Virus record (IMG/VR): IMGVR_UViG_2563366958_000018
Reading direction: 5' to 3' (one strand)
Length of the DNA: 52,177 bases
Origin: a virus
Taxonomy: Duplodnaviria; Heunggongvirae; Uroviricota; Caudoviricetes
The stretch's first letter is position 1. The number at the start of each line of letters is the position of its first letter. Below the pieces are notes generated by a model. It was not told the DNA's origin and made no database searches. It was given only the letters and a program-made list of their open reading frames with translations. Shown one piece after another: positions 1 to 45,222 of this stretch. The translations under genes were made by a program, and so were the position numbers.

Positions 1-3000
1 ATGCCTGTCGACTTTCTAACCTCTGACCAAAAACAGAATTACGGTTGTTATGCTGCAGAACCTAATGACGTGCAACTGGCGCGCTATTTTCATCTTGATG
101 AACGGGATCTGGCCTTCATTAACCAACGACGGGGCAAACATAATAGGCTGGGCATTGCGCTTCAGCTCACCACAGCCCGTTTTCTGGGAACATTTCTGAC
201 GGATTTAACTCAGGTTCTGCCTGGTGTTCAACATTTTGTCGCGGTACAGCTTAATATCCACCGTCCAGAAGTTCTCTCCCGCTATGCTGAACGGGACACT
301 ACCCTTAGAGAACATACTGCATTAATTAAGGAATATTACGGCTATCATGAATTTGGTGATTTTCCATGGTCTTTCCGCCTGAAGCGTCTGCTATATACCC
401 GGGCGTGGCTCAGTAATGAGCGACCGGGTCTGATGTTTGATTTTGCCACTGCATGGTTGCTTCAAAATAAGGTATTACTGCCCGGAGCAACCACACTAGT
501 ACGTCTCATCAGTGAAATTCGTGAAAGGGCAAATCAGCGGCTGTGGAAAAAGCTGGCCGCACTGCCGAACAAATGGCAGGCAGCTCAAGTGATGGAGCTT
601 CTGGTCATTCCGGAAGGTCAGCGTGTATCAGCACTGGAACAGTTGAAAAAAGGCCCTGTTACAGTCAGTGGACCTGCGTTTAATGAGGCGCTGGAACGAT
701 ATATCCGATTACGAAGTCTTGAGTTTTCCCGACTGAACTTTTCCGGTCTGCCTGCCATTCAACTGCGTAATCTGGCTCGTTATGCTGGCATGGCGTCGGT
801 AAAATATATCGCTCGAATGCCACAGCAGAGAAAGCTTGCTGCACTTACTGCATTCGTTAAAGCACAGGAAATAACGGCATTAGACGATGCCGTTGATGTG
901 CTTGATATGCTAATTCTGGACATTATCCGCGAAGCAAAGAAAACCGGGCAAAAAAAAAGACTCAGGACACTGAAAGATCTTGATCAGGCCGCATTGTTAC
1001 TGGCGCGGGCATGTGCATTGTTGCTGGATGATAATACAGATGTCCCAGATCTCAGGCAGGTTATCTTCAAGTGCGTACCCAAAAACAGACTGGCAGAATC
1101 TGTAAGCAAGGTTAATGAACTTGCTCGTCCACAGAACAATAATTTCCATGACGAAATGGTTGAGCAGTACGGTCGGGTTAAACGTTTTCTTCCGGCGGTG
1201 TTGCGGGACCTGCATTTCCGTGCGGCACCGGCAGGTGAACATGTACTGGCTGCGATTCATTATCTGGCAGAACTGAATGGTTCGAAAAAGCGCATCCTTG
1301 ATGATGCGCCTGAACATATTATCACCGGTCCCTGGAAACGCCTCGTATACGATGCGGAGGGACGGATACAGCGTGCAGGTTATTCACTATGTTTGCTGGA
1401 ACGCCTTCAGGATGCACTGCGCCGCCGGGACATCTGGCTTGAAAACAGTGATCGCTGGGGAGATCCTCGCGAGAAGTTGTTGCAAGGTGAAGAGTGGCAG
1501 ACTCAGCGTATTCCTGTCTGTCGGGCACTGGGACATCCTGTCGATGGACGTAAAGGTGTGCAACAACTGGCTATTCAGCTGGATGAGACCTGGAAAGCCG
1601 TGGCATCACGATTTGAAAAGAATGCGGAAGTTCATATCTGTAATGAAGGTAAATATCCATCCCTGACTATCAGTTGTCTGGAGAAACAGGAAGAGCCACC
1701 ATCATTGCTTCGTCTAAATAATCGGATCAAACAGCTACTCCCACCGGTAGATTTAACGGAACTGTTACTTGAGATAGATGCCCAGACAGGATTTACACAT
1801 GAGTTTGCGCATGTCAGTGAATCTGGTGCTCGAGCGCAAGATTTGCACATCAGTTTATGTGCGGTATTGATGGCTGAAGCCTGTAATATCGGACTGGAGC
1901 CGCTGATAAAGCACAATATACCAGCACTGACCCGCCATCGGCTCAGTTGGGTGAAACAGAATTACCTTCGTGCAGAAACGCTGGTCAGCGCCAATGCCCG
2001 CCTGGTTGATTTTCAGTCCACACTGGAGCTTGCTGGTCGTTGGGGAGGTGGAGAAGTGGCATCAGCTGACGGCATGCGCTTTGTCACACCAGTGAAGACC
2101 ATCAACTCAGGATCTAACAGAAAATATTTTGGTTCTGGACGAGGCATCACCTGGTATAACTTCGTATCTGATCAGTACTCTGGGTTCCATGGCATTGTGG
2201 TACCCGGTACATTACGGGATTCGATTTTTGTACTGGAAGGACTTCTTGAGCAGCAGACAGGGCTGAATCCAGTTGAAATCATGACAGACACTGCGGGTAG
2301 CAGCGATATTATTTTCGGTCTGTTCTGGCTACTGGGGTATCAGTTTTCCCCCCGGCTTGCCGATGCAGGTGAGGCGGTGTTCTGGCGGGTGAATAAATCG
2401 GCAAACTACGGAGTACTGGATAAGTTGGCCCGAGGATATGCAGATCTGTCAAAAGCGGAGAGTCAGTGGGATGAGATGATGCGAACCGCTGGTTCGCTGA
2501 AGTTGGGTACAATTCATGCGTCAGAACTCATTCGCTCTTTACTGAAAAGCTCGCGCCCATCAGGACTGGCACAGGCAATTATGGAAGTAGGGCGTGTAAA
2601 CAAAACGCTATATCTCCTCAATTATATTGATGATGAAGATTATCGTCGGCGGATCCTGACGCAGCTTAATCGAGGAGAAGGCCGCCACGCTGTGGCTCGT
2701 GCGATTTGTTACGGACAACGCGGAGAGATCAGAAAGCGTTATCGTGAAGGGCAGGAAGATCAACTGGGGGCGCTGGGCCTGGTTACTAATGCAGTGGTTC
2801 TGTGGAACACGCTCTATATGGAGGAAGCGTTGAGCTGGATGCGCCGTAATGGCGAAGAAATTATAGATGAAGATATCGCTCGGCTATCTCCCCTGATGCA
2901 CGGGCATATCAATATGTTGGGCCATTATACATTCACGTTGCCAGAGGATATTTTAAAAGGGGAACTGAGAGCTCTAAATTTAAATATAAACAACGAATTA

Positions 3001-3009
3001 TCTCCTTAA
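1..3009 (+). CDS. tnpA: Tn3-family transposase TnpA (Tn1000/gamma-delta-like), 1002 aa
   Basis: Full-length ORF starting MPVDFLT; conserved Tn3-family TnpA blocks (RPGLMFD, GGGEVASADGMRFV, LSPLMHGHINMLGHY); stop codon lies inside the terminal IR as in Tn3-family elements. Confidence 0.9.
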   Translation: MPVDFLTSDQKQNYGCYAAEPNDVQLARYFHLDERDLAFINQRRGKHNRLGIALQLTTARFLGTFLTDLTQVLPGVQHFVAVQLNIHRPEVLSRYAERDTTLREHTALIKEYYGYHEFGDFPWSFRLKRLLYTRAWLSNERPGLMFDFATAWLLQNKVLLPGATTLVRLISEIRERANQRLWKKLAALPNKWQAAQVMELLVIPEGQRVSALEQLKKGPVTVSGPAFNEALERYIRLRSLEFSRLNFSGLPAIQLRNLARYAGMASVKYIARMPQQRKLAALTAFVKAQEITALDDAVDVLDMLILDIIREAKKTGQKKRLRTLKDLDQAALLLARACALLLDDNTDVPDLRQVIFKCVPKNRLAESVSKVNELARPQNNNFHDEMVEQYGRVKRFLPAVLRDLHFRAAPAGEHVLAAIHYLAELNGSKKRILDDAPEHIITGPWKRLVYDAEGRIQRAGYSLCLLERLQDALRRRDIWLENSDRWGDPREKLLQGEEWQTQRIPVCRALGHPVDGRKGVQQLAIQLDETWKAVASRFEKNAEVHICNEGKYPSLTISCLEKQEEPPSLLRLNNRIKQLLPPVDLTELLLEIDAQTGFTHEFAHVSESGARAQDLHISLCAVLMAEACNIGLEPLIKHNIPALTRHRLSWVKQNYLRAETLVSANARLVDFQSTLELAGRWGGGEVASADGMRFVTPVKTINSGSNRKYFGSGRGITWYNFVSDQYSGFHGIVVPGTLRDSIFVLEGLLEQQTGLNPVEIMTDTAGSSDIIFGLFWLLGYQFSPRLADAGEAVFWRVNKSANYGVLDKLARGYADLSKAESQWDEMMRTAGSLKLGTIHASELIRSLLKSSRPSGLAQAIMEVGRVNKTLYLLNYIDDEDYRRRILTQLNRGEGRHAVARAICYGQRGEIRKRYREGQEDQLGALGLVTNAVVLWNTLYMEEALSWMRRNGEEIIDEDIARLSPLMHGHINMLGHYTFTLPEDILKGELRALNLNINNELSP

Positions 3010-3042: not shown

Positions 3043-3843
3043 GATCTTTACGAGGTTGACGTAATAGTCATGGGGTAAGTTTGTCATGGTGATAGTTCCC
3101 TTAAAGGTTAAGGATACTCACCACCGTCTGGTTCCAATCATTGGGTGGTGAGACGTACAGGGTTGGAACTACCGGTCACCATGGAATCCGGCGAGTCTTA
3201 CGACTCCCCCGCACGCCCCACCATAATTTGGGTGTAGCAGTGCTTTACGCATAAAAAAACCGCTAACGCGGTATGCGCCATGATGATTATCGGGGTTCCA
3301 ATCCCGACCGTAGATTTTGCTACGGCTCGGAAAGTGTCCACCAATGGCGCATTCATGTCAATACGGCGGGATTTTAACAGAGACAACCACATAGCGTGGG
3401 TTTATTGGTAGGCAGAAACAAAAAAACCGCCCTATTGAGGACGGTTCTTTCGTGCTGATCGGATTCGCGGTCCTTTCAGCATAACGTCGTTGTATAAACA
3501 ACCACGCAAGCACAAGCAGCAAGTTAATTTTACCCAAAAGGTAATAATAGTCCACTATTATGCTTCAAAAAATTGTGGTTCTTGTTGTGCCTGCAAACTC
3601 ACAGATTGTGGGTAGGTTACTGATTTTGTGAAAATAAACGAGTTTTTTCGTTTAATTTCTTTCCTATTACTAATCTTAAAATAATCGTAAAATACCTGTG
3701 GACCTTCCCGCCGATTCGCACCCGGGCACCGACTTTAGGGGAGGATTCTCCGTTGCCGTACATGCAAGCACAAGCAGCCGTGCTTGCTCTCGCGTTGTTT
3801 TCGTCGGTGGGGATGCCGTGAAACGGCCTGTAAGGGCCATACA

Positions 3844-3966
3844 ATGAAAAAATACTGTATGTGTATTTTTATCGTTGTTACTGGGGCTTTGTTTACGCCA
3901 CATGGGGAGGGTTGGAAGATTACTGATAACGCTCTGAATGTGACGATAAACATTAGCAGCAAGTAG
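3844..3966 (+). CDS. Small hydrophobic ORF (40 aa, MKKYCMCIFIVVTGALF...), hypothetical
   Basis: ATG with weak upstream purine tract; single hydrophobic segment; followed directly by a strong hairpin plus T-run. Confidence 0.2.
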   Translation: MKKYCMCIFIVVTGALFTPHGEGWKITDNALNVTINISSK

Positions 3967-3971
3967 CGATT

Positions 3972-3995
3972 AGGCCCCTTCGGGGGCCTTTTTTA
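3972..3995 (+). terminator. Rho-independent terminator
   Basis: AGGCCCC-TTCG-GGGGCCT stem followed by TTTTTT. Confidence 0.5.
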
Positions 3996-5186: not shown

Positions 5187-5287
5187 TATATAATTCTATA
5201 AATCTATATTTATAGAACGAGGTAAGCATAACCAACTTTTTGGCGGATGAAAAGCGTTTTATATAATTATATAAATCTATAATCATG
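5187..5287. promoter_or_regulatory. Candidate centromere/operator region upstream of the partition operon (two AT-rich palindromic repeat blocks)
   Basis: TTATATAATTCTATAAATCTATATTTATAGA (5187-5217) and TTTATATAATTATATAAATCTATAATCATG (5258-5287) immediately upstream of the ParA start. Confidence 0.45.
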
Positions 5288-7847: not shown

Positions 7848-8251
7848 TGAACGGACGTACACCAACGAAGAAAGAGAAACTTTATATACAAGCGGTGCTC
7901 ACTCACGTGGGTTGCATAGCTTGCATTATTGATGGCCGTGAAATTGAGAATCCAGAGCTGTGGACGGAGCTACATCACGATCCTGATTACGGCAGCGTTG
8001 ATGAGAATTGCCACTTCCATAGCTTTGGGTTGTGCGCACCACATCATCGCGGTGTTGTGCCTGGTGGTGGGCGTGTGCCTCCGCATATTGCCGTTCGTCA
8101 CCCTCCCCTGAGTAATTGTGCTCGCTTTGTTGAGCGTTATGGCACAGATGAATTTTTGTGTGCGCAGACGTGGGAGCTGTTGCCGCAGTCAGTTAAAGAC
8201 GAAATTGGGTTTGATCTTAGTCTTGGTGAAGTACCAGGGGATACCAAATGA
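7847..8251 (+). CDS. HNH-motif zinc-binding nuclease-like protein (nin-region type)
   Basis: CxxC ... HH ... N ... H ... C ... HH arrangement (CIAC, ELHHDPD, DENCHFH, CAPHH). Confidence 0.4.
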   Translation: MNGRTPTKKEKLYIQAVLTHVGCIACIIDGREIENPELWTELHHDPDYGSVDENCHFHSFGLCAPHHRGVVPGGGRVPPHIAVRHPPLSNCARFVERYGTDEFLCAQTWELLPQSVKDEIGFDLSLGEVPGDTK

Positions 8252-8580
8252 GATATACCGGCTTTCGCAAACCAGCGACAAGGAAAAGCAAATACGGCAA
8301 TAAAAAAACGGTTGTCGATGATATCGCTTTTGATAGCAAAAAAGAGGCTGATTACTACTGCGAACTGAAGCTACTGAGAAAAGCTGGCCGCGTTGTGACG
8401 TTTCTTATGCAGGTGCCTTTTCATCTGCCAGGTGGTGTCGTTTATAAACTTGATTTCATGGTGTTTTATGACGATGGGACGATTGATTGTGTCGACACTA
8501 AAGGTGTGCGAACAGACGTCTACATCATGAAGAAAAAGCAGGTAGAGGCGCTTTATCCCGTCACGATACGGGAGATCTGA
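8248..8580 (+). CDS. DUF1064-like phage protein
   Basis: YGNKKT and FDSKKEA motifs typical of DUF1064 as recalled. Confidence 0.55.
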   Translation: MRYTGFRKPATRKSKYGNKKTVVDDIAFDSKKEADYYCELKLLRKAGRVVTFLMQVPFHLPGGVVYKLDFMVFYDDGTIDCVDTKGVRTDVYIMKKKQVEALYPVTIREI

Positions 8581-8583
8581 ACA

Positions 8584-8961
8584 GTGAGACGCGATCTGGA
8601 TAGCTTGTTTGAGCTATGGGCGCTGTGGGTGCGCAATGGCTGCAACGCCCGTAGCGGTTTCGCGTCGATGTTAGAAATGATGATGGTTACGCGCTGCCAG
8701 TTTACCGGAGGGGGCGGCGCACCAAATGACTCACTGGAAACCAGTATAGAGGGAGCGGTGACGGCCCTCACGGTAGTTGATGAGACTGCGGCGCTGGTTG
8801 TCCGAATTGAATACGGGGCGTGGGAGATTCGGGGCCTCGACATAAATGCACCGCATATTGATAAAGCCCACGCCCTTTCTCTTAGCCTCAGACAGTATCG
8901 CCGGAAGCTGGCAAAAGCCAGGGCGTATGTTGTCGACTATTTGAAAAAGCGAAGAGAGTAA
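8584..8961 (+). CDS. Possible Q-like late antiterminator (short Q family)
   Basis: 125 aa, GTG start, position after nin-like genes and N-terminal pattern (LFELWALW) reminiscent of short Q proteins; weak. Confidence 0.35.
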   Translation: MRRDLDSLFELWALWVRNGCNARSGFASMLEMMMVTRCQFTGGGGAPNDSLETSIEGAVTALTVVDETAALVVRIEYGAWEIRGLDINAPHIDKAHALSLSLRQYRRKLAKARAYVVDYLKKRRE

Positions 8962-12839: not shown

Positions 12840-13180
12840 GCTGTAGTGAGAATCCATGCGATTACGAGCAGTATTCAGATATTCAGAGCGGGTAATGAAG
12901 CACATACAACCGAAAACATGGCAGAAACTGGACTCTATGGGAGCTAAGTTGGAGAAGATTACTCAACTTAAGCAGTGGCATATCGGCGAATATTATGGAA
13001 GTCCTGGTCGGGATGTTCGGTTGGTAAAAAGTTGAACATTGTTTTTTTATTGATCGATTAACCACGATATGAAGGTTTTTTTATGGAAAAACCTTGTTTT
13101 AGATGGTAACTGGGTGTAGTGTTTCATTTAACGTAGTAAAACTGCGTTAAGCGATTACCGCGTAATTTGTTGCTTTATGA

Positions 13181-13211
13181 AGCCCTGCCTTTTTCGGCGG
13201 GGCTTTTTTTT
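13181..13211 (+). terminator. Rho-independent terminator immediately upstream of the lysis cassette
   Basis: AGCCCTGCC-TTTTTC-GGCGGGGCT stem then a run of eight T. Confidence 0.5.
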
Positions 13212-13224
13212 AACGAGGATTTCA

Positions 13225-13620
13225 ATGTCAGCAGAACCAATTTCCGGTACGGCCGTTGCTGCTGGTGGCCTGATGGGTGCCAGCGTTTTTGGTATTGCAA
13301 CTGGTATTGATTACGGCGTTGTATTCGGGGCATTTGCTGGCGCTGTTTTCTATGTTGCTACAGCGGTGAATATTAGCCGTCTCAAGCTGATTGGCTATTT
13401 CTTTACATCGTTCATTGTTGGAGTGATTGGAGCGCCGTTAGTTGGCTCATTTCTTGCCAAATGGACCAGCTACAACGATCGACCTCTTGATGCGCTTGGT
13501 GCGGTTATTGTGGCTGCATTGACAATTAAAATCCTCACGTTCGTAAACAGCCAGGATCTCGGTAGCATCTTTGGAATGCTTTCCCGCTTACGTGGAGGGG
13601 GTTCAAATGGTAAGCAGTGA
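13225..13620 (+). CDS. Putative holin (multi-pass membrane protein)
   Basis: Gly/Ala-rich hydrophobic helices; first gene of the lysis cassette; RBS GAGGA. Confidence 0.5.
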   Translation: MSAEPISGTAVAAGGLMGASVFGIATGIDYGVVFGAFAGAVFYVATAVNISRLKLIGYFFTSFIVGVIGAPLVGSFLAKWTSYNDRPLDALGAVIVAALTIKILTFVNSQDLGSIFGMLSRLRGGGSNGKQ

Positions 13621-13903
13621 CCCGTCAGCACTGATTAATGCGGTGCTTTGCACAGTAATAGTAATGGCGCTGATGCTTTATCAACGGAAAGACTCCAGGC
13701 ATCGTCCATTTGTTTCCTTTCTGGCTTATATCTACGTCATTGTATACGCCAATGTTCCCTTCCGTTATGTGTTCGGTCTTTATCAAGAATCCCACTGGCT
13801 GGTGGTTATTGGAAATCTGATTATCTGCATCGTTGTTCTGTATTTCAGGGGCAATCTGGCGCGGATAGTTGACGCATTAGGATTTAATCATGACCAAAGA
13901 TGA
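13607..13903 (+). CDS. Small membrane protein (holin/antiholin partner candidate)
   Basis: Two to three hydrophobic helices, between holin and endolysin. Confidence 0.4.
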   Translation: MVSSDPSALINAVLCTVIVMALMLYQRKDSRHRPFVSFLAYIYVIVYANVPFRYVFGLYQESHWLVVIGNLIICIVVLYFRGNLARIVDALGFNHDQR

Positions 13904-14432
13904 GATTTTTAACAGCATTCTTGGAAAAGAGGGCGGCTATGTGGATCACCCTGACGACAAGGGAGGCCCAACAAAGTGGGGCATTACTCAGAACACTGCC
14001 CGTGCTCATGGATACCGTGGCGATATGCGCGATTTAACCCGCGAACAGGCACTAGAAATCCTTGAGGCTGATTACTGGTACGGACCACGCTTTGATCAGG
14101 TGGCCGCATTATCCTCTGATATTGCCGCAGAGCTGTGTGATACCGGTGTGAATATGGGGCCAACAGTGGCGTCCAAAATGCTTCAACGCTGGCTGAATGT
14201 GTTCAATCTGCGTGGGAAGCTGTATCCCGATTTGGATGCAGATGGACGAATCGGTCCACGTACCATTAATGCGCTGCGTGCTTATCTTGGGAATCGGGGA
14301 AAAGACGGCGAACGGGTGATGCTGACGTCGCTGAACTGTACGCAGGGCGAACGCTATCTGGAGCTGGCGGAGAAGCGCGAGGCGAATGAGTCGTTTGTCT
14401 ACGGCTGGATGAAAGAGCGAGTGGTGGTATGA
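13890..14432 (+). CDS. Endolysin, GH108-type N-acetylmuramidase with peptidoglycan-binding domain
   Basis: N-terminal ILGKEGGYVDHPDDKGGPTKWGIT signature of GH108 lysozymes. Confidence 0.8.
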   Translation: MTKDEIFNSILGKEGGYVDHPDDKGGPTKWGITQNTARAHGYRGDMRDLTREQALEILEADYWYGPRFDQVAALSSDIAAELCDTGVNMGPTVASKMLQRWLNVFNLRGKLYPDLDADGRIGPRTINALRAYLGNRGKDGERVMLTSLNCTQGERYLELAEKREANESFVYGWMKERVVV

Positions 14433-14707
14433 CTGGTTTGAAGGCCGTTTTGTCATTTATTGGCACAATTATATTGGTTGCATTCGGCGCGTTTGGTTTT
14501 GGTCGTATGAAGGGGCGAGAAAAGGCCGAAGATGAAGCTGAAAAGCAGCGCATTAATGAGAATGCAGCCGCCGTAAAAGCCACTGCGGAGCGGCGTATAG
14601 AAGTGACAAAAGAGGCGGGGAATGTACAGCAGAGTGTTAACCATATGGCTGATGACGATGTTGATCGCGAGCTGCGGGAGTCGTGGAAGCGTCCCGGTGG
14701 TGGTTGA
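14429..14707 (+). CDS. i-spanin (Rz-like)
   Basis: N-terminal TM helix, charged coiled-coil region, directly after endolysin. Confidence 0.6.
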   Translation: MTGLKAVLSFIGTIILVAFGAFGFGRMKGREKAEDEAEKQRINENAAAVKATAERRIEVTKEAGNVQQSVNHMADDDVDRELRESWKRPGGG

Positions 14708-14831
14708 TACCGCCTGTGATTGGGTAAAGCCCATCTACCTGACTGATCACGACATCGATGTTATGGACCGCCAGACAAAGAAAGATATTCTGGCTCATAA
14801 CAGGGCATGGGAAATCAACTGCCGAAAGTAA
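14622..14831 (+). CDS. o-spanin (Rz1-like lipoprotein), overlapping the i-spanin 3' end in another frame
   Basis: Signal peptide with lipobox LIAS-C, Pro-rich mature part. Confidence 0.6.
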   Translation: MYSRVLTIWLMTMLIASCGSRGSVPVVVDTACDWVKPIYLTDHDIDVMDRQTKKDILAHNRAWEINCRK

Positions 14832-15000
14832 TATATATTTCTATAATTATATAAATATATAGTTACAACATTCTATGCGCTTTTCTCATGGGCGCACGCA
14901 TCAACCATGTTTGTCTGATATGCCGCCGCGCCCAAAAATCCTGAATTTATTGGCTGGGATTTTCGTGCGCGGCGCCACACCAGACAAACAAATCAAATAT

Positions 15001-15076
15001 GGCCCCTTAGCTTAGTGGTTAGAGCAGGCGACTCATAATCGCACGGTCATCGGTTCAAATCCGGTAGGGGCCACCA
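15001..15076 (+). tRNA. tRNA with CAU anticodon, most similar to tRNA-Ile2 (ileX-type, lysidine-dependent AUA decoder); could also be a Met tRNA
   Basis: Cloverleaf folds: acceptor GGCCCCT/AGGGGCC, anticodon loop CUCAUAA, T-loop TTCAAAT, 3' CCA encoded. Confidence 0.85.
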
Positions 15077-15383
15077 ATTCACCCTCACACATAAAGATAA
15101 GCGCGGTGGAGTTACTTCTTCGTGCTCATCTTTATGCGTGCCTGGTGCGCATTTCGGGCGAACGTGGGGCTAAGTTACAGGCAGGGCCTGTTATCCGCAA
15201 AGGGGTAAAAGCTGGAGCGGCACGGAACTGTAGCCGTGTTACCAAAACAGCGTTGTCGGGCGATATCCGGCACACAACAGGCAAGGGCATTAATCAGTCT
15301 GGTTAGTGCCCTTTTCGTTGTGTCTGCTGTAGAGCTGGTCAGCGTTATGACTGCCGGAGATAAGCGCCGGAGGCACAACTAAC

Positions 15384-15971
15384 ATGGAGGCAATTGCATT
15401 GTTTAATCTGATTTATGCAGATCCCCCCTGGGAATACAAAGATAAGTGTAAGGATGGGAATCGTGGAGCTGGTTTTAAGTATCCAACGATGAAAGCTGAG
15501 GATATTGCTCGTATTCCTGTCTGGCAGCTTGCTAATCCTGAATCGTGTTTGTTGGCCATGTGGTGGGTTCCGACTCAGCCAGAAGAAGCGTTGCTGGTGG
15601 TGAAAGCATGGGGATTCAGGCTTATGACCATGAAGGGCTTCACATGGAACAAATGTGGTAGCCGACAACCAGATAAGCTGGTGATGGGGATGGGGCATAT
15701 GACTCGTGCAAACAGTGAAGATTGCTTGTTTGCGGTAAAAGGCAAATTGCCGACCCGCCTTGATGCGGGGATCATTCAGTCGTTTACATCGCCTCGTCTG
15801 GAGCATTCTCGGAAGCCTGATGTGGTTCGTGACAAGCTGGTAAGGCTGTTAGGTGATGTTCCTCGTATTGAGCTGTTTGCTCGCGGTGATTTACCTGATG
15901 GTTGGCATGGCTGGGGCAACCAGTGCAATGGAGGTATCCAGTTGCATGATGCTCTCTGGCAAGTGGCATAG
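15384..15971 (+). CDS. MT-A70-family N6-adenine DNA methyltransferase (orphan)
   Basis: Catalytic DPPW motif (IYADPPWEY), 195 aa; no adjacent restriction endonuclease. Confidence 0.8.
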   Translation: MEAIALFNLIYADPPWEYKDKCKDGNRGAGFKYPTMKAEDIARIPVWQLANPESCLLAMWWVPTQPEEALLVVKAWGFRLMTMKGFTWNKCGSRQPDKLVMGMGHMTRANSEDCLFAVKGKLPTRLDAGIIQSFTSPRLEHSRKPDVVRDKLVRLLGDVPRIELFARGDLPDGWHGWGNQCNGGIQLHDALWQVA

Positions 15972-16081
15972 AATTATATAATTATAGATTTATATAAAAA
16001 GTGCTTTACAGGTGGGAAAAAATTTCCTATGGTTATACCCGAAACCGAGCGATACCCGCCCTGGTTAAACCGGAGAAATCT
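15968..16081 (+). promoter_or_regulatory. Conserved promoter/operator/leader cassette, copy 2
   Basis: Identical to copy 1 over ~100 bp. Confidence 0.5.
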
Positions 16082-16352
16082 GATGAAAGTACAAGACCGT
16101 GAAGTAGTAAAAAACCTCCTGCAATACCTGACCTCAAAAAACCTGACGGGCAGCGTTGAGTTCCGTGAAGCGTTAAAACATTTCAACGTCACTACGGTTT
16201 ATCGTTGGGAAAACAAACATTCTGAAAGACCGTATGTGGTGGATGTTTTTGCGCCTGATATTGAGTGCGGTTTTGAGCGTCATTCGTTCAAGGAGAAACA
16301 TTCTGCTGATTTTTTTTGTGAGGTTGTATGTGCGGCAGGAGATGATGAGTGA
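16082..16352 (+). CDS. Hypothetical protein (90 aa)
   Basis: First ORF after cassette copy 2. Confidence 0.45.
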
Positions 16353-17954: not shown

Positions 17955-18578
17955 ATGACAAAACATCTTAATGTGGTTTCTTTACCACTTTCTGTGTTGA
18001 TTGGTTATGAAAAGAACGCTCGCACACACTCCGTGGAGCAGGTAGATCAGATTATTGCCAGCATACAGGAGTACGGATGGACTAATCCGATCCTGATAGA
18101 CGAGAACAACGTTGTAATTGCTGGTCATGGTCGAATTGCTGCGGCCACTCAGTTGGGGATGGATGATGTTCCCTGCATTGTTCTGGCTGGGCTAACGGAG
18201 AATCAGAAGAAGGCATATCGTCTGGCCGACAACCGTATTCCGCTGAATGCTGGTTGGGATGAAGAGTTGTTAAGCGCGGAGCTTGCAGATCTTGCGGCCG
18301 ATGATTTTGCTCTGGACTCAATTGGTTTTACTCAGCGCGAACTGGATAACTTATTGAGTGCGGCGGTCTACGATGACACAGAGGGTATGGATATCCCATT
18401 TGAGAAGGATGAGGCCAAATCAGGCGTAAAAGTTCAGTACCTGTCATTTGGAGGTCATAAAATCCCGGCAACGGATGAGGAAGCGGATCGTTTTGACTGC
18501 GCGGTGTCTCGTTATGTTGATGATAATGGCAGCTATATCGGATTTGTATCCGCATTGCTGGCTGGGGAGGTGTGCTGA
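17955..18578 (+). CDS. ParB/Srx-like nuclease-domain protein (207 aa)
   Basis: N-terminal ParB-type fold with GHGR arginine motif (VIAGHGRIAAA); paralogue of 21244-21834. Confidence 0.7.
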   Translation: MTKHLNVVSLPLSVLIGYEKNARTHSVEQVDQIIASIQEYGWTNPILIDENNVVIAGHGRIAAATQLGMDDVPCIVLAGLTENQKKAYRLADNRIPLNAGWDEELLSAELADLAADDFALDSIGFTQRELDNLLSAAVYDDTEGMDIPFEKDEAKSGVKVQYLSFGGHKIPATDEEADRFDCAVSRYVDDNGSYIGFVSALLAGEVC

Positions 18579-19951
18579 TGCTTCACCTCAATTACGACAT
18601 AACGCACCTACGCGGCGCGGAATATAACCCGCGTTTTATCGGTGAGGATGATCTTGCGAGGCTGGCGGAAAGCGTCAGGGAGCTGGGGCTTGTGAAGCCA
18701 TTGATAGTGCGCGGCGATTTGCTGGTGGCGGGACACCAAAGGACGAAGGCGCTACGTAAGTTGGGAATAACGCGTGCTGCGGTGTATGTGTTGCCCTGTG
18801 AAACGACGGTATACGACGAAGTACGGTTTAACCAACTGCATAACGGAACGGATTTTGATAGCGGAGATGAGCGTTGCAGGGTGTCCGGTCTGGAAGATAA
18901 GCATGGTTTTGTTCAGGTATCGGCAAGCCAGATCTCAGGCAATATGCGCGCGAAAATGGCATATGTTCGAAAGAACATAGCGGAACTGGTTATCAAGTAT
19001 GGTCCGTGGGGTGGTTGTGTTGCTACTCAGTCTGGTGAGGTTATTCACTGTGCTCAGTATGCATTAGCAGCGAAAATGACGCGCACACCGCTAACGGTGT
19101 TTGTGATCCCTGATGTTGAGAAGGAAAAATACCAAAGTTATCTGAATAAAACTTATGGTGTATTTGAGTATTCTCATCTGGAGAAAACAACATACATCCA
19201 GACGTATGCGCAGCTTATGCGGTTGCGTAATGGTGGCAGCCTGAAATCAAATCTGTATGAGTCGTTGATCCTCCCGATCGTTGCCAAGACGCCAAGAGGA
19301 ATTGATTTTGGTTCGGGGCAGGGAGACTACGCGCGAATGCTCAGGGCAAAGGGATATAACCTGCATGATCTTGAGCTTTTTCGCCGTAAGGGCGCTGGAA
19401 ACACTCTGGATAGGGCTGCAACAAACCGAATGATTGATACGCTGGTGGACGACTTAAAAACGCGAGGGCGTTACGACTACGTGATTTGCGATAGCGTTTT
19501 GAACTCGGTCGATAGTGTCGAGGCTGAATGGTCCGTTCTGACGGTTCTGAAAGGCCTGTGTAAAGCTGGTGGGTCAATATTCTTTTCTGGTCGTAGCCGT
19601 GGAGAGCTGGAAACAGTCCTGAAGCAAACACAAGCGGCGAGTTCCAAAAGCCGGCTTTATTTTATTGATCATAACGGTTTTACCGCGTTGTACCGGAAGG
19701 GGCACTGGTTTTACCAGAAGTTTCACTCTGATGATGAAGTGAAGCAGTTGTGTCGTGTACATGGTTTCAGGATTAAGCGGTCAATATTCAACTGTAATAG
19801 CTGGTATTTGCACGTCATTAACGATGATTCCCTTAGTTGGGCGAGTCTGGAGAAAGCTGTTCGTTTTGAGTTTGAGTTGCCGTTGCCTGGTGGTTCAACA
19901 ATCGGACGATCTGATGATGTGCTGGCGGCTTTCCGGCCGTTGATTAAGTAG
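18578..19951 (+). CDS. ParB/Srx-like N-terminal domain fused to a class I SAM-dependent methyltransferase domain
   Basis: N-terminal LVAGHQRTKA ParB motif; C-terminal motif I GIDFGSGQGDYA and acidic post-I motif (YVICDSVLN); no DPPY/NPPY motif seen. Confidence 0.6.
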   Translation: MLHLNYDITHLRGAEYNPRFIGEDDLARLAESVRELGLVKPLIVRGDLLVAGHQRTKALRKLGITRAAVYVLPCETTVYDEVRFNQLHNGTDFDSGDERCRVSGLEDKHGFVQVSASQISGNMRAKMAYVRKNIAELVIKYGPWGGCVATQSGEVIHCAQYALAAKMTRTPLTVFVIPDVEKEKYQSYLNKTYGVFEYSHLEKTTYIQTYAQLMRLRNGGSLKSNLYESLILPIVAKTPRGIDFGSGQGDYARMLRAKGYNLHDLELFRRKGAGNTLDRAATNRMIDTLVDDLKTRGRYDYVICDSVLNSVDSVEAEWSVLTVLKGLCKAGGSIFFSGRSRGELETVLKQTQAASSKSRLYFIDHNGFTALYRKGHWFYQKFHSDDEVKQLCRVHGFRIKRSIFNCNSWYLHVINDDSLSWASLEKAVRFEFELPLPGGSTIGRSDDVLAAFRPLIK

Positions 19952-21243: not shown

Positions 21244-21834
21244 ATGGCTCTAAAAATCGAATATTTACCAGTCGGTAAGTTGCTCAGATATGCCAAAAAT
21301 TCACGGACTCATTCAGATGAGCAAGTTGAACAGTTGGTGAACAGTATCCGTGAGTTCGGTTTCACTAATCCTGTGCTGATCGATGAAAAGAATGAACTGA
21401 TTGCGGGGCATGGGCGGCTTGCAGCAGCCGAAATTCTGGAAATGGATAAAGTTCCGGCGATTCGGTTGAGTAACCTTTCTGAAAAACAGAAGAAGGCTTA
21501 CAGGATTGCAGATAACAAGCTGGCCTTAAATGCTGGCTGGGATATGCAGCTTCTGGCCGAAGAAGTCAAAGAGTTAATGGATGATGATTTTGATATTGAT
21601 CTGCTTGGGTTTAATGATGCAGAGCTTGACGAAATGTTAAGCGATGAACAGCCGCAGGAAGAAGACGATAATTCTTCCCCTGTTGTTCAAATTAAGTACC
21701 TGGCTATTGATAAAGAACGTATTCCCGCGACGGATATGGAAATTGCATTGTTGCTGGATGTTTATCGTCAGTACCACGACGCGCATGAAACGCATGAGGG
21801 ATTTGTTCAGTATCTTGCTAATGGTTGCAAGTAA
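21244..21834 (+). CDS. ParB/Srx-like nuclease-domain protein immediately upstream of terminase small subunit
   Basis: LIAGHGRLAAA motif; clear paralogue of 17955-18578. Confidence 0.7.
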   Translation: MALKIEYLPVGKLLRYAKNSRTHSDEQVEQLVNSIREFGFTNPVLIDEKNELIAGHGRLAAAEILEMDKVPAIRLSNLSEKQKKAYRIADNKLALNAGWDMQLLAEEVKELMDDDFDIDLLGFNDAELDEMLSDEQPQEEDDNSSPVVQIKYLAIDKERIPATDMEIALLLDVYRQYHDAHETHEGFVQYLANGCK

Positions 21835-27539: not shown

Positions 27540-28583
27540 ATGCCGAATATTGATATTTTTGAACGACGTACGATGCTTGAGCCTGTTATTCAGAATTTCA
27601 AGGCTCGTCGTTTTCTTCTTCGTACCTTTTTTCCTGGTGTTCAGACCTTTAATACAAAGAAAGTTGATCTGGATTTTGTTCGCGGTGGCCGTACTATGGC
27701 TCCGTTTGTTGGTAAAGGTTTTGGCTCAAAAACCGTTGAGCGACGCGGCTTTGTAACGAGAACTCTGGAGCCACCACTTGTTGCACCTGATTTGGTAACA
27801 ACAGCCGAGCTGCTTTTAAACAGGCTTCCGGGTGAGAATATTTACAACGCAAAATCGCCAGCAGAACGAGCCGCCGAGCAATTAGGTAAAGATTTGCTTG
27901 AGCTTGATGAAATGGTTAACCGCCGTGAAGAATGGATGTGTGCACAAGTCTTGTTTACGGGGCAGGTTGATATTGTTGGTGAAGGAGTGGATGACACAGT
28001 TTATTTTTGGCCTGAAGAGGAAGGAGATAAACCATATCTTGAACTGACAGGTGATGATTTATGGAGTGCAGCAAAATCAGATCCGTTAGTCAATGTTCGC
28101 AACTGGAAACGTCGGGTATCACTAACTTCAGGTTTTACACCTCGTGTTGCCGTAATGGGCGCAAAAGTTGTTGATGCCTTCGTTAAAAATGAAGCAGTAA
28201 CTAAATATCTTGATAATCGCCGAAAAGAGCTTGGGTATATTGAGCCTAAAGAGTTAGAAGAAGGCGTAACTCATTATGGCAATCTTGAAGGTGTCGATTT
28301 TTATGGTTACGACGAACTTATTCGCAATGATAAAACAGGAAAACCTGAACCATTAGTACCGGAAGATAAGATCCTCTTTGGCTCTCCTGGTCGAGGAACG
28401 ATGCTGTATGGTGCTGTAGAGCTTGTAGATGACGCCGAAAAGACTCTAACGATTGTTGAGTCACCACGAGTTCCAGACACTTGGGTAACTCGTAAGCCGG
28501 CTGGCCGTTATGTTGCCATGAAGTCATCTCCACTGCCTAATCCTGGTGTGGCTGATGCCTATCTGGTGGCTAAGGTGGTTTAA
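27540..28583 (+). CDS. Major capsid protein (lambda gpE family)
   Basis: 347 aa; position after protease and decoration genes. Confidence 0.8.
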   Translation: MPNIDIFERRTMLEPVIQNFKARRFLLRTFFPGVQTFNTKKVDLDFVRGGRTMAPFVGKGFGSKTVERRGFVTRTLEPPLVAPDLVTTAELLLNRLPGENIYNAKSPAERAAEQLGKDLLELDEMVNRREEWMCAQVLFTGQVDIVGEGVDDTVYFWPEEEGDKPYLELTGDDLWSAAKSDPLVNVRNWKRRVSLTSGFTPRVAVMGAKVVDAFVKNEAVTKYLDNRRKELGYIEPKELEEGVTHYGNLEGVDFYGYDELIRNDKTGKPEPLVPEDKILFGSPGRGTMLYGAVELVDDAEKTLTIVESPRVPDTWVTRKPAGRYVAMKSSPLPNPGVADAYLVAKVV

Positions 28584-37621: not shown

Positions 37622-37938
37622 ATAATACGTTTACCATATCATCACCTTCTTACTCGATTGATTGGTCGCCCAAAACAGTTGTAGAAGAAGTTTTGCAAAA
37701 TGTCTCTACTATTATTAATACTCAAATTGGCACTGTACCATATGCCAGAAAATTAGGAATTAATTCAAGTCTTGTTGATAGCCCTAGTCCAATTTTTATT
37801 GCTACAGCAACACGAGAAATAATTCAAAAAATTAGTGAGTTTGAGCCTAGAGCGATTATCCATTCTGTTACTTTTGAAAGAACGGACGTTTCTGATGGTT
37901 TTATTAGGCCAAAACTTGTGATAGGAGTTAGAGAATGA
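37618..37938 (+). CDS. Baseplate wedge protein (gpW/gp25-like)
   Basis: 106 aa with EPR motif (EFEPRAIIHSVTF). Confidence 0.65.
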   Translation: MNNTFTISSPSYSIDWSPKTVVEEVLQNVSTIINTQIGTVPYARKLGINSSLVDSPSPIFIATATREIIQKISEFEPRAIIHSVTFERTDVSDGFIRPKLVIGVRE

Positions 37939-39059
37939 CGTTGCCGCGTGGTGGTTTGCCAGATATTACTTTCGCAGATTCTAACCCGACTGATATAACA
38001 ACTCGTTCAATCAGGGCTTTTGAGAGTATAACAGGTGAAACATTAGCACCTGCTGATCCACGTAGATTATTCATCTTATCATTGTGTGAGATTATTATAC
38101 AGCAAAGAAAAGCTATCGATTTTTCTGCAAAACAAAACCTTCTTACATATGGTGAAGGTGAATATCTCGACCATATAGGCTATCTGACGGATACGCCTAG
38201 GCTGGAAGCTCAATCTGCCTTGACTACATTTGAGTTTAATCTGTCAACAAAATTATCGGGGATATATACAATACCTGCTGGCACTCAAGTTTCAACTGGA
38301 AATGGTGTTATTTTCCAAACAGATATTTTGTTGGAAATACCTGCTGGGAAAACAGTTGGTACAGTCTCAGGATATGCTGTTATACCTGGTTTATCTGGGA
38401 ATGGCTTTTTACCAGGGCAAATAAATGAGTTGGTGACTCCGTTGCCGTATGTTTCCAGAGTAAGGAATGTAACAACATCTAATTCTGGTGCTGATACGGA
38501 GTCAGATGATAATTATGCTGAAAGAATAAAACTGTCGCCGGAAAAACTGTCTACAGCAGGGCCGGAGGATTCTTATAAATATTGGACAAGAACAGCCAAT
38601 CAGAATATAAAAGATGTGAATGTATATACACCATCGCCCGGAATTGTAGAAATCCGTTCTTTGTTAGAGAACGGAGATATACCTTCTGATGAACTATTAG
38701 AGCAGATAAATAGCGTTCTCTCTGCAACTAATATTCGACCATTCACAGATAAAGTTCTTGTTAAGAAACCAGAGAGCATTGAATACGATATAATAATTAA
38801 ATACTGGATTAACTCATCGGACAAAAACAGAACAACTTTAATTCAAAGTGAGGTTGAGAAAGCTATTGATGAGTATAAACAATGGCAACGTTCGGTTATG
38901 GGAAGAGATATAAATCCAGATGAAATTATTCAACGTTTAAAAAATGCTGGGGCTAAAAGATTAGAAATATCAAGTCCTGTTTTTAATGTGGTTGGAGAGA
39001 CACAGGTCGCCAGAGAGAGAAATATAAATTGCCAGTATGCGGGGTTAGAGGATGGCTGA
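37935..39059 (+). CDS. Baseplate J-like protein
   Basis: 374 aa following the gp25-like gene. Confidence 0.7.
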   Translation: MTLPRGGLPDITFADSNPTDITTRSIRAFESITGETLAPADPRRLFILSLCEIIIQQRKAIDFSAKQNLLTYGEGEYLDHIGYLTDTPRLEAQSALTTFEFNLSTKLSGIYTIPAGTQVSTGNGVIFQTDILLEIPAGKTVGTVSGYAVIPGLSGNGFLPGQINELVTPLPYVSRVRNVTTSNSGADTESDDNYAERIKLSPEKLSTAGPEDSYKYWTRTANQNIKDVNVYTPSPGIVEIRSLLENGDIPSDELLEQINSVLSATNIRPFTDKVLVKKPESIEYDIIIKYWINSSDKNRTTLIQSEVEKAIDEYKQWQRSVMGRDINPDEIIQRLKNAGAKRLEISSPVFNVVGETQVARERNINCQYAGLEDG

Positions 39060-39633
39060 TATCTTTAATGTTAGCTTGTTGGATGTTTTACCTCCTAACT
39101 TAGCTAGCGATCCCAACGTGATAGCTATGTCGAAAGCTATTGATGATGAACTACAAGCAATTAACAATTTAATATATAAGACAGAAATATATAGCGTTGT
39201 TGATAACCTGGACTCAGTTGTTCTCGATCATTTAGCTTGGCAATGGAATGCTGATACATGGAGGGATAGTTGGCCTGTATCGTTAAAGCGTTCTGTTTTT
39301 AAATCAATAATACGAACAAAGCGAATAAAGGGTACAAGGGCAGCGGTTGAAGATGTAGTAAATAGCTTGGGTGGAGAGGTAAACATAACAGAATGGTTTG
39401 AAACATCACCACCTGGCGAACCATATACAGCCTCAATTGTTGCTTCGATTAACTCTTTTGATGGTGCTGTTCCTTCGAAAGAGATGTTGGAGGATACGTT
39501 AAGAAGTATCAAGAGTGCAAAGTCGGCAAGAACACTATTTACATTTTCGCAAGCAACCAATGTTTCAGGTGGTGTTGGTATTGTCGGTGCTTTCCAGCCT
39601 GTGTCTTATGTACGATTAATTGGTGAGTGCTAA
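39052..39633 (+). CDS. Tail protein I-like (baseplate)
   Basis: 193 aa between J-like gene and tail fibre gene. Confidence 0.6.
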   Translation: MADIFNVSLLDVLPPNLASDPNVIAMSKAIDDELQAINNLIYKTEIYSVVDNLDSVVLDHLAWQWNADTWRDSWPVSLKRSVFKSIIRTKRIKGTRAAVEDVVNSLGGEVNITEWFETSPPGEPYTASIVASINSFDGAVPSKEMLEDTLRSIKSAKSARTLFTFSQATNVSGGVGIVGAFQPVSYVRLIGEC

Positions 39634-39663: not shown

Positions 39664-42510
39664 GTGAGTAAATTATTATTTACGATGACTGACGCCGGGC
39701 GTAAGGCGCTGGTTAATGCCAACAAGACTGGAACAAATAAAGTTGAGATCGTTTCTGTTGGTTTAGGTAGTAGATATTATGCCACATCAACCACACAAAC
39801 AAAAATAACAGATGAAATAAAGCGACTTACCACAATAGGAGGCAAAGTCGTTTCTCCTGATACCATTCATGTAACTGCGAAGGATGATAGTAAAGATGAG
39901 TATGTTGTCCATACAATAGGTTTGTATACAAATAAAGGAACATTGTTTGCTGTATACTCGCAAGAACAAGTAATAATAAATAAAGCATCTTCTACAATTG
40001 CTTTAATATCAAGTGATATAGCAATTAAAAATCTTGATACTAAAAACATTACATTTGGTGATGTTGAGTTTATTAACCCTCCCGCAACCGAAACTGTTGT
40101 TGGAGTAGCAAGATTTGCTAATGAACAAGAAATTGATGCAGGTACAGATGATTCCCTGGCTGTTTCAGCAAAGCGGCTTAAGCAAGCTATTGTAAAACAT
40201 GAGCAATCACGTAATCATCCTGATGCAACTTTAACATCAAAAGGCATTGTTCAACTCAGTAATGCCACCAATAGCACGTCTGAAAAGCTCGCAGCGACGC
40301 CTAAGGCTGTTAAGGCTGCATATGACCTGGCTAACGCTAAATACACCGCACAGGACGCTACCACGGCGCGAAAAGGGATTGTTCAGCTCAGTAGTGCCAC
40401 TAACAGTACGTCTGAAACGCAGGCGGCAACGCCAAAAGCGGTCAAGGCAGCAAATGACAACGCAAATTCACGTCTGGCGAAAAATCAGAACGGTGCAGAT
40501 ATCCAGGATAAATCAGCTTTTCTGGACAATGTTGGCGTTACCAGCCTGACGTTTATGAAAAACAATGGCGAAATGCCGCTTGATGCTGATCTGAATACGT
40601 TTGGTCCTGTTAAGGCTTATTCAGGTATCTGGTCTAAAGCAACATCCACCAACGCAACACTGGAGAAAAATTTCCCGGAAGATAATGCTGTCGGTGTGCT
40701 TGAGGTTTTTGCTGCCGGCAATTTTGCAGGTACGCAACGCTTTACCACGAGAGACGGCAATGTATACATGCGTAAACTCGCCAATAAGTGGAATGGCACT
40801 GATGGTCCGTGGGGCGTATGGCGTCACACTCAATCTGCTACCCGCCCTTTGAGTACGACTATAGACCTGAATACGCTTGGAGCCGCCGAGCATCTTGGTT
40901 TATGGCGTAACAGTAGCTCAGCTATAGCTTCATATGAACGCAATTATCCAGAGGAAGGCGGCTTTGCTCAGGGGATGCTTGAGATCCTCGAAGGCGGAAA
41001 TTATGGAAGAACGCAACGTTATACCACTCGCCGTGGAAATATGTATGTCCGCTGTCTTGCGGCAAGCTGGGATGCATCAAATCCGCAGTGGGAACCGTGG
41101 TTAAGAGTCGGTCATCAGTCAGAGAGTCGTTATTACGACGGTGATTTGAATGATGTAACCTCACCAGGTATTTACAGCGTTACAGGTAAAGCGACCAACG
41201 GTCCAATACTGGACGGAAACGGCGTGACAGTCCTCGGTATTCTGGAGGTGTTGAGGCGCTTTGATGGTGTTAATGTATGGCAGCGTTATACAACTGCCGG
41301 AACAGGTACAACCCTTAAAGGCCGCACCTTTGAGCGCGTCTTTACCGGCAGCTCATGGAGCGAATGGCGGGAAGTCTACACCTCGTATTCACTTCCCCTG
41401 AATCTGGGTATCGGCGGTGCTGTGGCAAAGCTCACCAGCCTGGACTGGCAGACCTACGATTTTGTGCCGGGCAGTCTGATAACCGTTCGGCTTGATAACA
41501 TGACCAATATTCCCGACGGTATGGACTGGGGCGTCATTGATGGCAACCTGATAAACATCTCAGTCGGTCCGAGTGATGATTCTGGTTCGGGACGCTCAAT
41601 GCATGTATGGCGCAGCACTGTAAGTAAAGCCAACTACCGCTTTTTTATGGTTCGCATTTCAGGAAATCCGGGAAGCCGCACGATCACGACAAGACGTGTG
41701 CCAATTATCGACGAAGCTCAGACATGGATGGCGAAACAGACATTCAGCGGTGGTCTTTCAGGCGAACTATCCGGCAATGCTGCTACAGCAACAAAGCTGA
41801 AAACGGCAAGGACAATTAACGGCGTAAAATTTGACGGCTCGGCAAATATTGAAGCGTTTCCGCCAGGTGTTCCGCTGCCGTGGCCATCAGATACGCCACC
41901 TGCAGGTTATGCAATCATGCTGGGGCAGACGTTTGATAAGGCAGCATATCCGAAACTGGCTATTGCCTATCCTTCTGGTGTTATTCCAGATATGCGCGGC
42001 TGGACAATCAAGGGCAAACCCGCCAGTGGTCGGGCCGTATTGTCTCAGGAACAGGATGGCATTAAATCGCACACCCACAGTGCCAGCGCATCCAATACGG
42101 ATTTGGGTACGAAAACCACATCGTCGTTTGATTACGGTACTAAATCAACGAATAACACAGGTGCACATACCCATAATGTATCTGGTACTGCAAATAGTGC
42201 TGGCGCACATACTCATACCGTTCCATTAAGGAGACCAAACAGTGGCGGTATGAATTTCGACTGGCTGGATGGTTCATCAAGTGGCACGGTGGTGGGGAAT
42301 GGAACTGTGCCTTCTTCTGGCGCACATACCCACTCAGTATCAGGTACCGCTACAAGTGCTGGGGCACATGCACACACTGTTGGTATTGGCGCTCATACGC
42401 ACTCTGTTGCGATTGGTTCACATGGACACACCATCACCGTTAACGCTGCTGGTAACGCGGAAAACACCGTTAAAAACATCGCATTTAATTATATTGTGAG
42501 GCTTGCATAA
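39664..42510 (+). CDS. Tail fibre protein (P2 gpH-like N-terminal domain, His-box C-terminal repeats)
   Basis: [30 protein letters not shown]...[29 protein letters not shown] block closely resembles P2 gpH as recalled; C-terminal GAHTHxVSGTA repeats. Confidence 0.85.

Positions 42511-43599: not shown

Positions 43600-44472
<873 letters not shown>

Positions 44473-44642: not shown

Positions 44643-45222
<580 letters not shown>

Follow-up and report, generated by a model that had tools for sequence, protein, structure and literature searches.

Which of the transfer RNAs (tRNAs) with a CAU anticodon, the minor isoleucine tRNA (tRNA-Ile2), the elongator tRNA-Met or the initiator tRNA-fMet, is encoded at positions 15001-15076 of IMG/VR record IMGVR_UViG_2563366958_000018, and what would it bring to the element that carries it? 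The record, a stretch of 52,177 nucleotides referred to here as the window, belongs to a common family of circular Escherichia coli plasmids of 47-50 kb, and the element is a phage-plasmid. Our conclusion is that the gene very probably encodes tRNA-Ile2, the minor isoleucine tRNA of the ileX type, which would be lysidinylated by the host enzyme TilS and would supplement the decoding of AUA in phage-plasmid genes. The Ile2 identity is strongly supported by comparison with E. coli tRNAs; lysidinylation by TilS and better translation of the late genes would be expected by analogy with well-precedented cases. The size of the translational benefit and the timing of expression, in the lysogen or in lytic growth, are what we infer.

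Fold and identity of the CAU tRNA

Within the 52,177 bp of the window, ARAGORN called a single tRNA, at 15001-15076 (plus strand), with the anticodon CAT at tRNA position 34 (15034-15036). Rfam family RF00005 matched 15001-15073 with 65.8 bits (gathering score 29; E = 3.8e-12). The gene, GGCCCCUUAGCUUAGUGGUUAGAGCAGGCGACUCAUAAUCGCACGGUCAUCGGUUCAAAUCCGGUAGGGGCCACCA, forms a complete cloverleaf with a 7-bp acceptor stem, a 4-bp D stem including one U.G pair, an anticodon stem of 5 positions topped by G27.A43 and a 5-bp T stem; the discriminator is A73 and the CCA end is encoded. A canonical cloverleaf with a CAU anticodon, as a tRNA-Ile2 should have, was observed with ARAGORN, Rfam and the stem-pairing table. 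A sequence-only reading of the window had placed a canonically folding tRNA at this position, and both its coordinates and its cloverleaf were right. The locus is an intact, full-length tRNA gene.

Integration into tRNA genes is common among temperate phages, many of which carry pieces of a tRNA, and E. coli ileY adjoins prophage-like remnants. That the locus is a remnant or mimic of such an integration site (attP), and not a working tRNA, is nevertheless barely credible, and this candidate was rejected. The tRNA is full length, keeps its stems and CCA, has diverged from the host copies (88% identical) and is scored as complete by both ARAGORN and Rfam, and the element, with RepA and ParA, is replicated as a plasmid. 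In about 39 of the 48.7 kb of a relative's annotation, the only recombination genes were of the serine recombinase family, and an integrase was absent.

CAT-anticodon tRNAs can be sorted by a minimum-differences strategy (Silva et al. 2006, PMC1635315). Our references were E. coli K-12-type genes, all from one chromosome: ileX (context rpoD-mug-tRNA-nfeF), ileY, the elongator Met genes (in a Gln/Met/Leu tRNA cluster) and the initiator Met genes (beside mltA). In alignment, the window tRNA was separated from ileX by 9 positions, from ileY by 11, from the elongator metT/metU by 21 and from the initiator metZ/metV by 31. By this criterion, it is nearer to Ile2 than to the Met or fMet tRNAs of E. 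coli. The likeness to ileX noticed in the sequence-only reading was borne out, since 67 of 76 positions are identical to the chromosomal tRNA-Ile between mug and nfeF.

The identity elements pointed in the same direction. The acceptor stem, GGCCCCU/AGGGGCC, is exactly that of ileX, from which ileY departs at the 6-67 pair. The major identity elements of E. coli TilS are base pairs 4:69 and 5:68 (PMC11947777), namely C4-G69 and C5-G68 (PMC1635315), and both are carried by the window tRNA, as seen in the pairing table. For isoleucyl-tRNA synthetase (IleRS), the bacterial identity set compiled in PMC9976931 includes A73, C4-G69, U12-A23, C29-G41, A35, U36, A37 and A38, and all of these stem, discriminator and anticodon-loop members are present. 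The published set also has the D-loop elements G16, U20 and U21 (PMC9976931); the D-loop of the window tRNA is that of ileX, and position 16 is U in both, versus G16 of the set.

An elongator tRNA-Met reading AUG would have the same CAT anticodon, and the unmodified fraction of a tRNA-Ile2 is itself charged by methionyl-tRNA synthetase (MetRS) and reads AUG (PMC1635315, PMC9976931). However, the acceptor determinants of MetRS, U4-A69 and A5-U68 (PMC9976931), are absent from the window tRNA, where the TilS pairs C4-G69 and C5-G68 stand in their place; metT/metU have U4 and A5. With more than twice as many differences from metT/metU as from ileX (21 versus 9), and with the RefSeq label tRNA-Ile described below, we consider an elongator very unlikely, despite the tRNA-Met labels that ARAGORN and some GenBank records give to this gene or to near-identical phage copies. 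The chance of an initiator tRNA-fMet is negligible. It would have the CAT anticodon in its favour and nothing else: G1-C72 is paired and 11-24 is C-G, instead of the C1/A72 of metZ/metV and of A11-T24, the discriminator of fMet tRNA (PMC1635315). The anticodon stem, GGCGA/UCGCA, is also unlike that of the initiator, in line with the 31 differences from metZ/metV.

Database labels of this gene disagree. RefSeq labels as tRNA-Ile the copy on E. coli plasmid pGMI14-004_3 (NZ_CP028194.1), which matches the window tRNA at 100% identity. Among the matches listed, chromosomal genes 88% identical to the window tRNA are tRNA-Ile in RefSeq as well. We take it that the RefSeq pipeline PGAP calls tRNAs via tRNAscan-SE, whose isotype models tell Ile2 from Met, so that the RefSeq label stands in, indirectly, for the classifier comparison suggested in the sequence-only reading. 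The label 'tRNA-Met' given by ARAGORN presumably reflects the CAT anticodon alone; it is therefore no evidence of Met identity. In the GenBank records of the Yersinia phages vB_YpM_39/41/44 (OR545053-OR545055), a near-identical gene is labelled tRNA-Met. Such labels most likely come from naming by anticodon only and most likely amount to a systematic mis-annotation across phage records. The Ile2 type favoured in the sequence-only reading thus stands, on the numbers of differences, on the TilS and IleRS determinants present and the MetRS determinants missing, and on the RefSeq label.

The window tRNA and ileX differ mostly in ways that leave the structure in place. In the T stem, 49-65 is A-U in place of G-C, 51-63 is C-G in place of U-A and 50-64 is a U.G wobble in place of C-G, and despite these changes all five positions are paired. 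Judged from the sequence, changes with pairing kept are what would be expected of a tRNA under selection for structure. In the anticodon stem and loop, positions 27-42 are those of ileX, and position 43 is A, giving G27.A43 versus G27.U43 in ileX; E. coli TilS is impaired by substitutions in this stem. None of the Ile2-type relatives examined has a Watson-Crick pair at 27-43, where G.A occurs here and in phages P1 and P7, G.U in ileX, and A.C in ileZ of Shiga toxin (Stx)-converting phages.

AUA usage and the proposed function

To what use could an additional tRNA-Ile2 be put? We counted codons in curated open reading frames (ORFs) of the window and in a host sample, made up of the 42 annotated genes used from 50 kb of E. 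coli chromosome. In the late morphogenesis block (21244-43127, plus strand), which runs through terminase, portal, protease, capsid, sheath, tube, tape measure, baseplate and tail fibre genes according to the RefSeq annotation of relatives, AUA occurs at 19.9 per 1000 codons (143 in 7190) and makes up 30% of Ile codons. The corresponding values are 13.6 per 1000 and 22% in the rest of the element, and 2.4 per 1000 and 4.2% in the host sample. The late genes are thus enriched over the host with an odds ratio of 8.3 (p = 1e-38), as the sequence-only reading had anticipated when it proposed comparing AUA frequencies, and more weakly over the remaining element (odds ratio 1.5, p = 0.006). AUA is also the most numerous host-rare codon of the late genes, which would be the chief users of AUA decoding.

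When AUA counts were normalised by third-position composition at four-fold degenerate sites, observed/expected ratios were 0.89 for the late genes, 0.73 elsewhere on the element and 0.21 for the host. The element uses AUA near the level predicted by mutation bias alone, and the host strongly avoids it. The late-gene enrichment fits codon supplementation.

In the mechanism that we propose, the tRNA, whose strand is that of the lysis and late genes, would be transcribed within a structured leader, from which RNase P and the 3' processing enzymes of the host would presumably release it. TilS of the host would then turn C34 into lysidine, so that IleRS and no longer MetRS would charge the tRNA, and it would read AUA instead of AUG. 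The scarce tRNA-Ile2 of the host would be supplemented by these extra copies during bulk translation of element genes, because the genes of the whole element use AUA at 17 per 1000 codons (20 in the late genes) versus 2.4 in the host sample. If the tRNA were expressed in the plasmid state, a modest rise in the AUA decoding capacity of the host would also be possible.

Several observations weigh against a tRNA-Ile2 working in this way. In the tRNA itself, the allele of the window has U13.G22 and not the C13-G22 typical of the family, and G27.A43 where ileX has G.U. U13 (window position 15013) is found also in pGMI14-004_3 and in one viral contig; C13 is found in 10 of the 11 other family copies sampled, including vB_YpM_41, and in a copy on an unrelated viral contig (L019). 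Neither U13.G22 nor G27.A43 looks disabling from the sequence. As to transcription, a sigma-70 consensus scan of 14400-15500 called no promoter. As to codon usage, late-gene AGA and AGG are enriched 9.7-fold and 6.5-fold over the host sample, and no tRNA-Arg is present on the element; since these codons are about as strongly enriched as AUA, the AUA enrichment is largely one of AT-rich third positions (GC content at third positions, GC3, 0.335). The major capsid gene (27540-28583), the most highly expressed late gene, has AUA at none of its 9 Ile codons. Finally, a diverged relative that carries no tRNA as judged by ARAGORN, Salmonella plasmid CP053324.1 (L008), has AUA at 14.6 per 1000 codons in the orthologous late genes, with an observed/expected ratio of 0.82. 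The AUA-rich backbone is therefore independent of the tRNA.

Within the late block, the use of AUA is uneven. The tail tube gene has it at 1 of 13 Ile codons, the baseplate gene at 37935-39059 at 18 of 36, and its neighbour at 39052-39633 at about 50%. The genes with the highest expression thus still seem to avoid AUA, consistent with residual selection against it. The tRNA is best read as a response to AUA demand rather than as a requirement for it.

A co-adaptation test comparing the AUA observed/expected ratios of tRNA-bearing and tRNA-less late genes (0.89 versus 0.82, with one relative) was rejected as evidence either way. Many ORFs of the Salmonella plasmid are shortened with respect to the window, for example terminase (235 versus 617 amino acids) and sheath (394 versus 486 amino acids). 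It is either a frameshift-rich assembly or a decaying element, and as a functional control it is the weaker for it.

The leader, the tRNA cassette and the phage-plasmid

The tRNA lies in a non-coding interval of 552 nt (14832-15383), between the lysis cassette and a gene for an MT-A70-type DNA methyltransferase, all on the same strand. The interval opens with an AT-rich palindromic block (14831-14876), detected by its inverted repeats, which contains a TATAAT (14842-14847) with, by reading of the sequence, a weak -35 region. About 45 nt of the block are almost invariant in the Salmonella relative, in surroundings that are about 76% identical, and a related copy with 3 mismatches lies at 5258-5282, upstream of the ParA-type gene, where 0 would be expected by chance. 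The block is a possible promoter or operator of the tRNA leader, and it and its copy may be a shared operator, promoter or centromere-like site.

Next comes an 83-nt hairpin on the plus strand (14908-14990; 34-nt arms, 85% complementary; folding z = -5.3), which ends 10 nt before the 5' end of the tRNA. Four of its 27 predicted pairs are retained in the Salmonella relative via changes on both sides. It is a conserved element of the backbone and not a part of the tRNA cassette. A second plus-strand hairpin (15086-15140; 27-nt arms, 78% complementary) starts 10 nt after the 3' end of the tRNA and is part of the minimum-energy fold of 15077-15325. It is followed by a conserved non-coding segment of about 135 nt (15148-15282, plus strand), which is about 90% identical to L008 and to a second tRNA-less relative, the viral contig L023; this value was judged by inspecting alignments, the wider match over 15148-16110 being 75%, so that the non-coding stretch is better conserved than the adjoining genes. 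An intrinsic-terminator-like hairpin with a T-rich tail closes the leader (15283-15323, plus strand), just before the methyltransferase gene; the terminator scan gave a 14-pair stem and then TTCGTTGTGT. Its stem is retained in L008 and L023 via double changes, despite a 36-nt insertion in the loop. The conserved segment and this hairpin (15148-15323) may together be a leader RNA of the late operon. The leader flanks matched no Rfam family, with generic hairpin (miRNA-type) matches below threshold, and neither the upstream nor the downstream leader had homologues outside the family in the phage collection.

Together, the tRNA and the second hairpin form a cassette of about 158 nt (14990-15147), which is missing as a whole from L008 and L023. 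At the same two breakpoints, these relatives carry 376 nt (40127-40502) and 672 nt (7989-8659), respectively, of unrelated and apparently non-coding DNA, and both keep the AT-rich block, the first hairpin, the non-coding stretch and the terminator. The region resembles a late-operon leader in which the tRNA cassette fills a variable slot. We offer this as a lead and not as a finding, the covariation in the leader coming from two effective lineages and its support being thin for that reason. One could go further and propose an undescribed regulatory RNA, in which the tRNA would be a swappable cassette of a conserved structured leader, and in which processing of the tRNA by RNase P and at its 3' end, or RNase III cleavage of the long hairpins on either side, would be tied to read-through of the terminator or to how stable the late mRNA is. 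We hold this to be a long shot. If it were true, release of the tRNA and late-gene expression would be mechanistically linked. Lineages with and without the tRNA that share exact breakpoints also make a clean natural system in which to weigh the worth of one phage tRNA.

The cassette bears on another explanation, namely that an Ile2-type tRNA is kept for a reason other than AUA supply, either to replace host tRNA degraded or cleaved during infection or by tRNA-targeting defences, or as a near-neutral passenger. A discrete unit in a variable slot, filled with other non-coding DNA in tRNA-less relatives, would be in keeping with this, as would the similar normalised AUA usage of a relative that has no tRNA. 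So would the tRNA with 1 difference on contig L019, an unrelated viral backbone, where it stands in an array of Arg(UCU), Thr(UGU), Ser(UGA) and CAU tRNAs. Still, we know of no anticodon nuclease targeting tRNA-Ile2. The anticodon loop is the same as that of the host, so it would offer no escape from a loop-specific nuclease. A neutral passenger is further opposed by identity elements that are all intact and a T stem that is still paired, and the rank of AUA as the most numerous host-rare codon of the late genes (143 codons) speaks for supply. In PLSDB, the terminase was found at at least 80% coverage in 58 plasmids and the tRNA intergenic region at at least 80% coverage in 58; the two sets were counted separately and may not be the same 58 records. 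Within the E. coli family, the tRNA appears to be fixed, with apparent retention in every member sampled. We therefore regard retention for another reason as unlikely and prefer the supplementation of AUA decoding by a tRNA-Ile2.

The sequence-only reading had called the element a phage-plasmid, and this is confirmed by its genes and by relatives known both as circular plasmids and as virions. It has replication and partition genes (RepA_IncFII_LM, 231 bits, and a ParA-type ATPase) and a full gene set for a phage with a contractile tail, from terminase to tail fibre, in addition to the lysis cassette. Yersinia phage vB_YpM_41, obtained as a virion on Y. pestis, matches about 80% of the window with an identity of about 98%, and the element is about 98% identical to the isolated phages vB_YpM_39/41/44. 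The 48.5 kb plasmid of the reference strain ATCC 25922 belongs to the same family.

On the 5' side of the leader, the lysis cassette (13177-14707, plus strand) consists of two holins, a GH108 endolysin and a small ORF in a spanin-like region, as judged by Pfam and by the RefSeq annotation of pGMI14-004_3. The Pfam matches are Phage_holin_8, Phage_holin_3_7 and Glyco_hydro_108 with PG_binding_3; in the spanin-like region, an mEp390 match is annotated as an Rz-like spanin. On the 3' side, the MT-A70-type methyltransferase gene (15384-15971, plus strand) is the first one after the leader, as annotated by RefSeq on an identical plasmid region and supported by PHROG 359 (E = 1e-102). Between the leader and the terminase, proteins with a ParB N-terminal domain are encoded at 17955-18578 and 21244-21834 (Pfam, the former match being below gathering score) and at 18572-19951 (RefSeq annotation of a relative).

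The phage-plasmid in this record carries resistance as well. A Tn3-family transposase (1170 bits), the TEM beta-lactamase gene blaTEM (668 bits) and a truncated resolvase ORF, of which the C-terminal part is left, lie in segments outside the vB_YpM_41 alignment (1-3009, 43600-44460 and 44643-44975); the transposase gene tnpA and the bla-resolvase segment are not adjacent in the window. The hin invertase and the invertible tail-fibre region of vB_YpM_41 are mostly unaligned to the window, which suggests a rearrangement. Rfam also detected a small-RNA cluster at 3141-3994, with a C4 antisense RNA (3141-3228, minus strand, 84 bits), isrK (3253-3326, minus strand, 70 bits) and a full-length ryfA homologue (3698-3994, plus strand, 142 bits). 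C4 antisense RNA is part of the P1/P7-type immunity region, and ryfA is linked to a small toxic peptide.

Relation to known CAU tRNAs of phages and hosts

The kind of feature described here is long known, from the tRNA-Ile of P1/P7 and from Stx-phage ileZ, and the identical gene is already tRNA-Ile in RefSeq. Its interest is that of a textbook case, a mobile element that carries the decoder of a host-rare codon. It also draws attention to a mislabelling that recurs in phage annotation: GenBank gives this gene as tRNA-Met for vB_YpM_39/41/44, and a similar CAU tRNA occurs in about 900 phage records, some of which call it tRNA-Met and others tRNA-Ile. Our literature search found no paper on the tRNA of this phage-plasmid family, the AnCo elements being SSU5-like and of a different family, and nothing on ileZ together with Shiga toxin.

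A chromosomal donor of the allele was not identified in representative genomes with exact or degenerate patterns. The exact 3' half of the tRNA had no match in 185,579 representative genomes. A degenerate pattern of the phage-type T-arm hit two contigs, one of Citrobacter amalonaticus and one of 83 kb from Escherichia sp., whose tRNA is identical to the P1-like one. The allele therefore seems to circulate among phages and not to be a recent capture from a host chromosome, as far as these patterns tell.

E. coli ileX and ileY have in common with the window tRNA the length of 76 nt, the anticodon loop CUCAUAA, the D-loop, the discriminator, the TilS determinants and those IleRS determinants of the stems, discriminator and anticodon loop that could be checked. 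From ileX, the window tRNA differs in three T-stem pairs, in T-loop position 59 and variable-loop position 44, and by U43 to A43 and C13 to U13. ileX and ileY are chromosomal, whereas the window tRNA belongs to a mobile element and is set in a phage leader that separates the lysis genes from the late genes.

The comparisons with P1/P7 and with ileZ rest on annotated sequence records. The closest relative found is the third tRNA gene of P1/P7, a tRNA-Ile upstream of ban, at 93.4% identity with 5 differences from the window tRNA and 4 from the family consensus (C13). Both tRNAs have G27.A43, A49-U65 and C51-G63, and both are on enterobacterial phage-plasmids. In P7, however, the tRNA-Ile is in the ban operon controlled by the C1 repressor, with tRNA-Asn and tRNA-Thr further upstream, whereas the window has a lone tRNA between the lysis and late regions. 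The P1-like backbones, of 94-100 kb, are unrelated to the 48 kb element, and homology with P1-type plasmids ends at the tRNA borders, save for up to 11 nt of 5' leader.

Experimental precedent for lysidine at position 34 of a phage-encoded CAU tRNA comes from a T4-like vibriophage, in which one of two encoded tRNA(CAU)s was found to carry k2C34 (reviewed in PMC13191261). That phage is large and virulent, encodes 18 tRNAs and degrades host nucleic acids (PMC13191261), in contrast to the single tRNA of a temperate phage-plasmid. The tRNA-Ile-2 of the related vibriophage KVP40 is 78.9% identical to the window tRNA.

A parallel in genomic setting is offered by the Stx-converting lambdoid phages, with the order Q, ileZ, argN, argO, stx2AB. 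A Q-type antiterminator or late activator was not recognised in the window among 10 neighbouring or selected early-region proteins scanned with PHROGs and NCBIfam. The layout of the leader is otherwise similar. Like the window tRNA, ileZ, which is annotated as tRNA-Ile, is of the Ile2 type and lies in the leader of a late transcript, in its case downstream of the late regulator Q and upstream of late genes, and the same rare-codon rationale applies to both. The two tRNAs are 82.9% identical, with 13 differences. ileZ is accompanied by two tRNA-Arg genes, whereas the phage-plasmid has none, though its late genes are enriched 9.7-fold in AGA.

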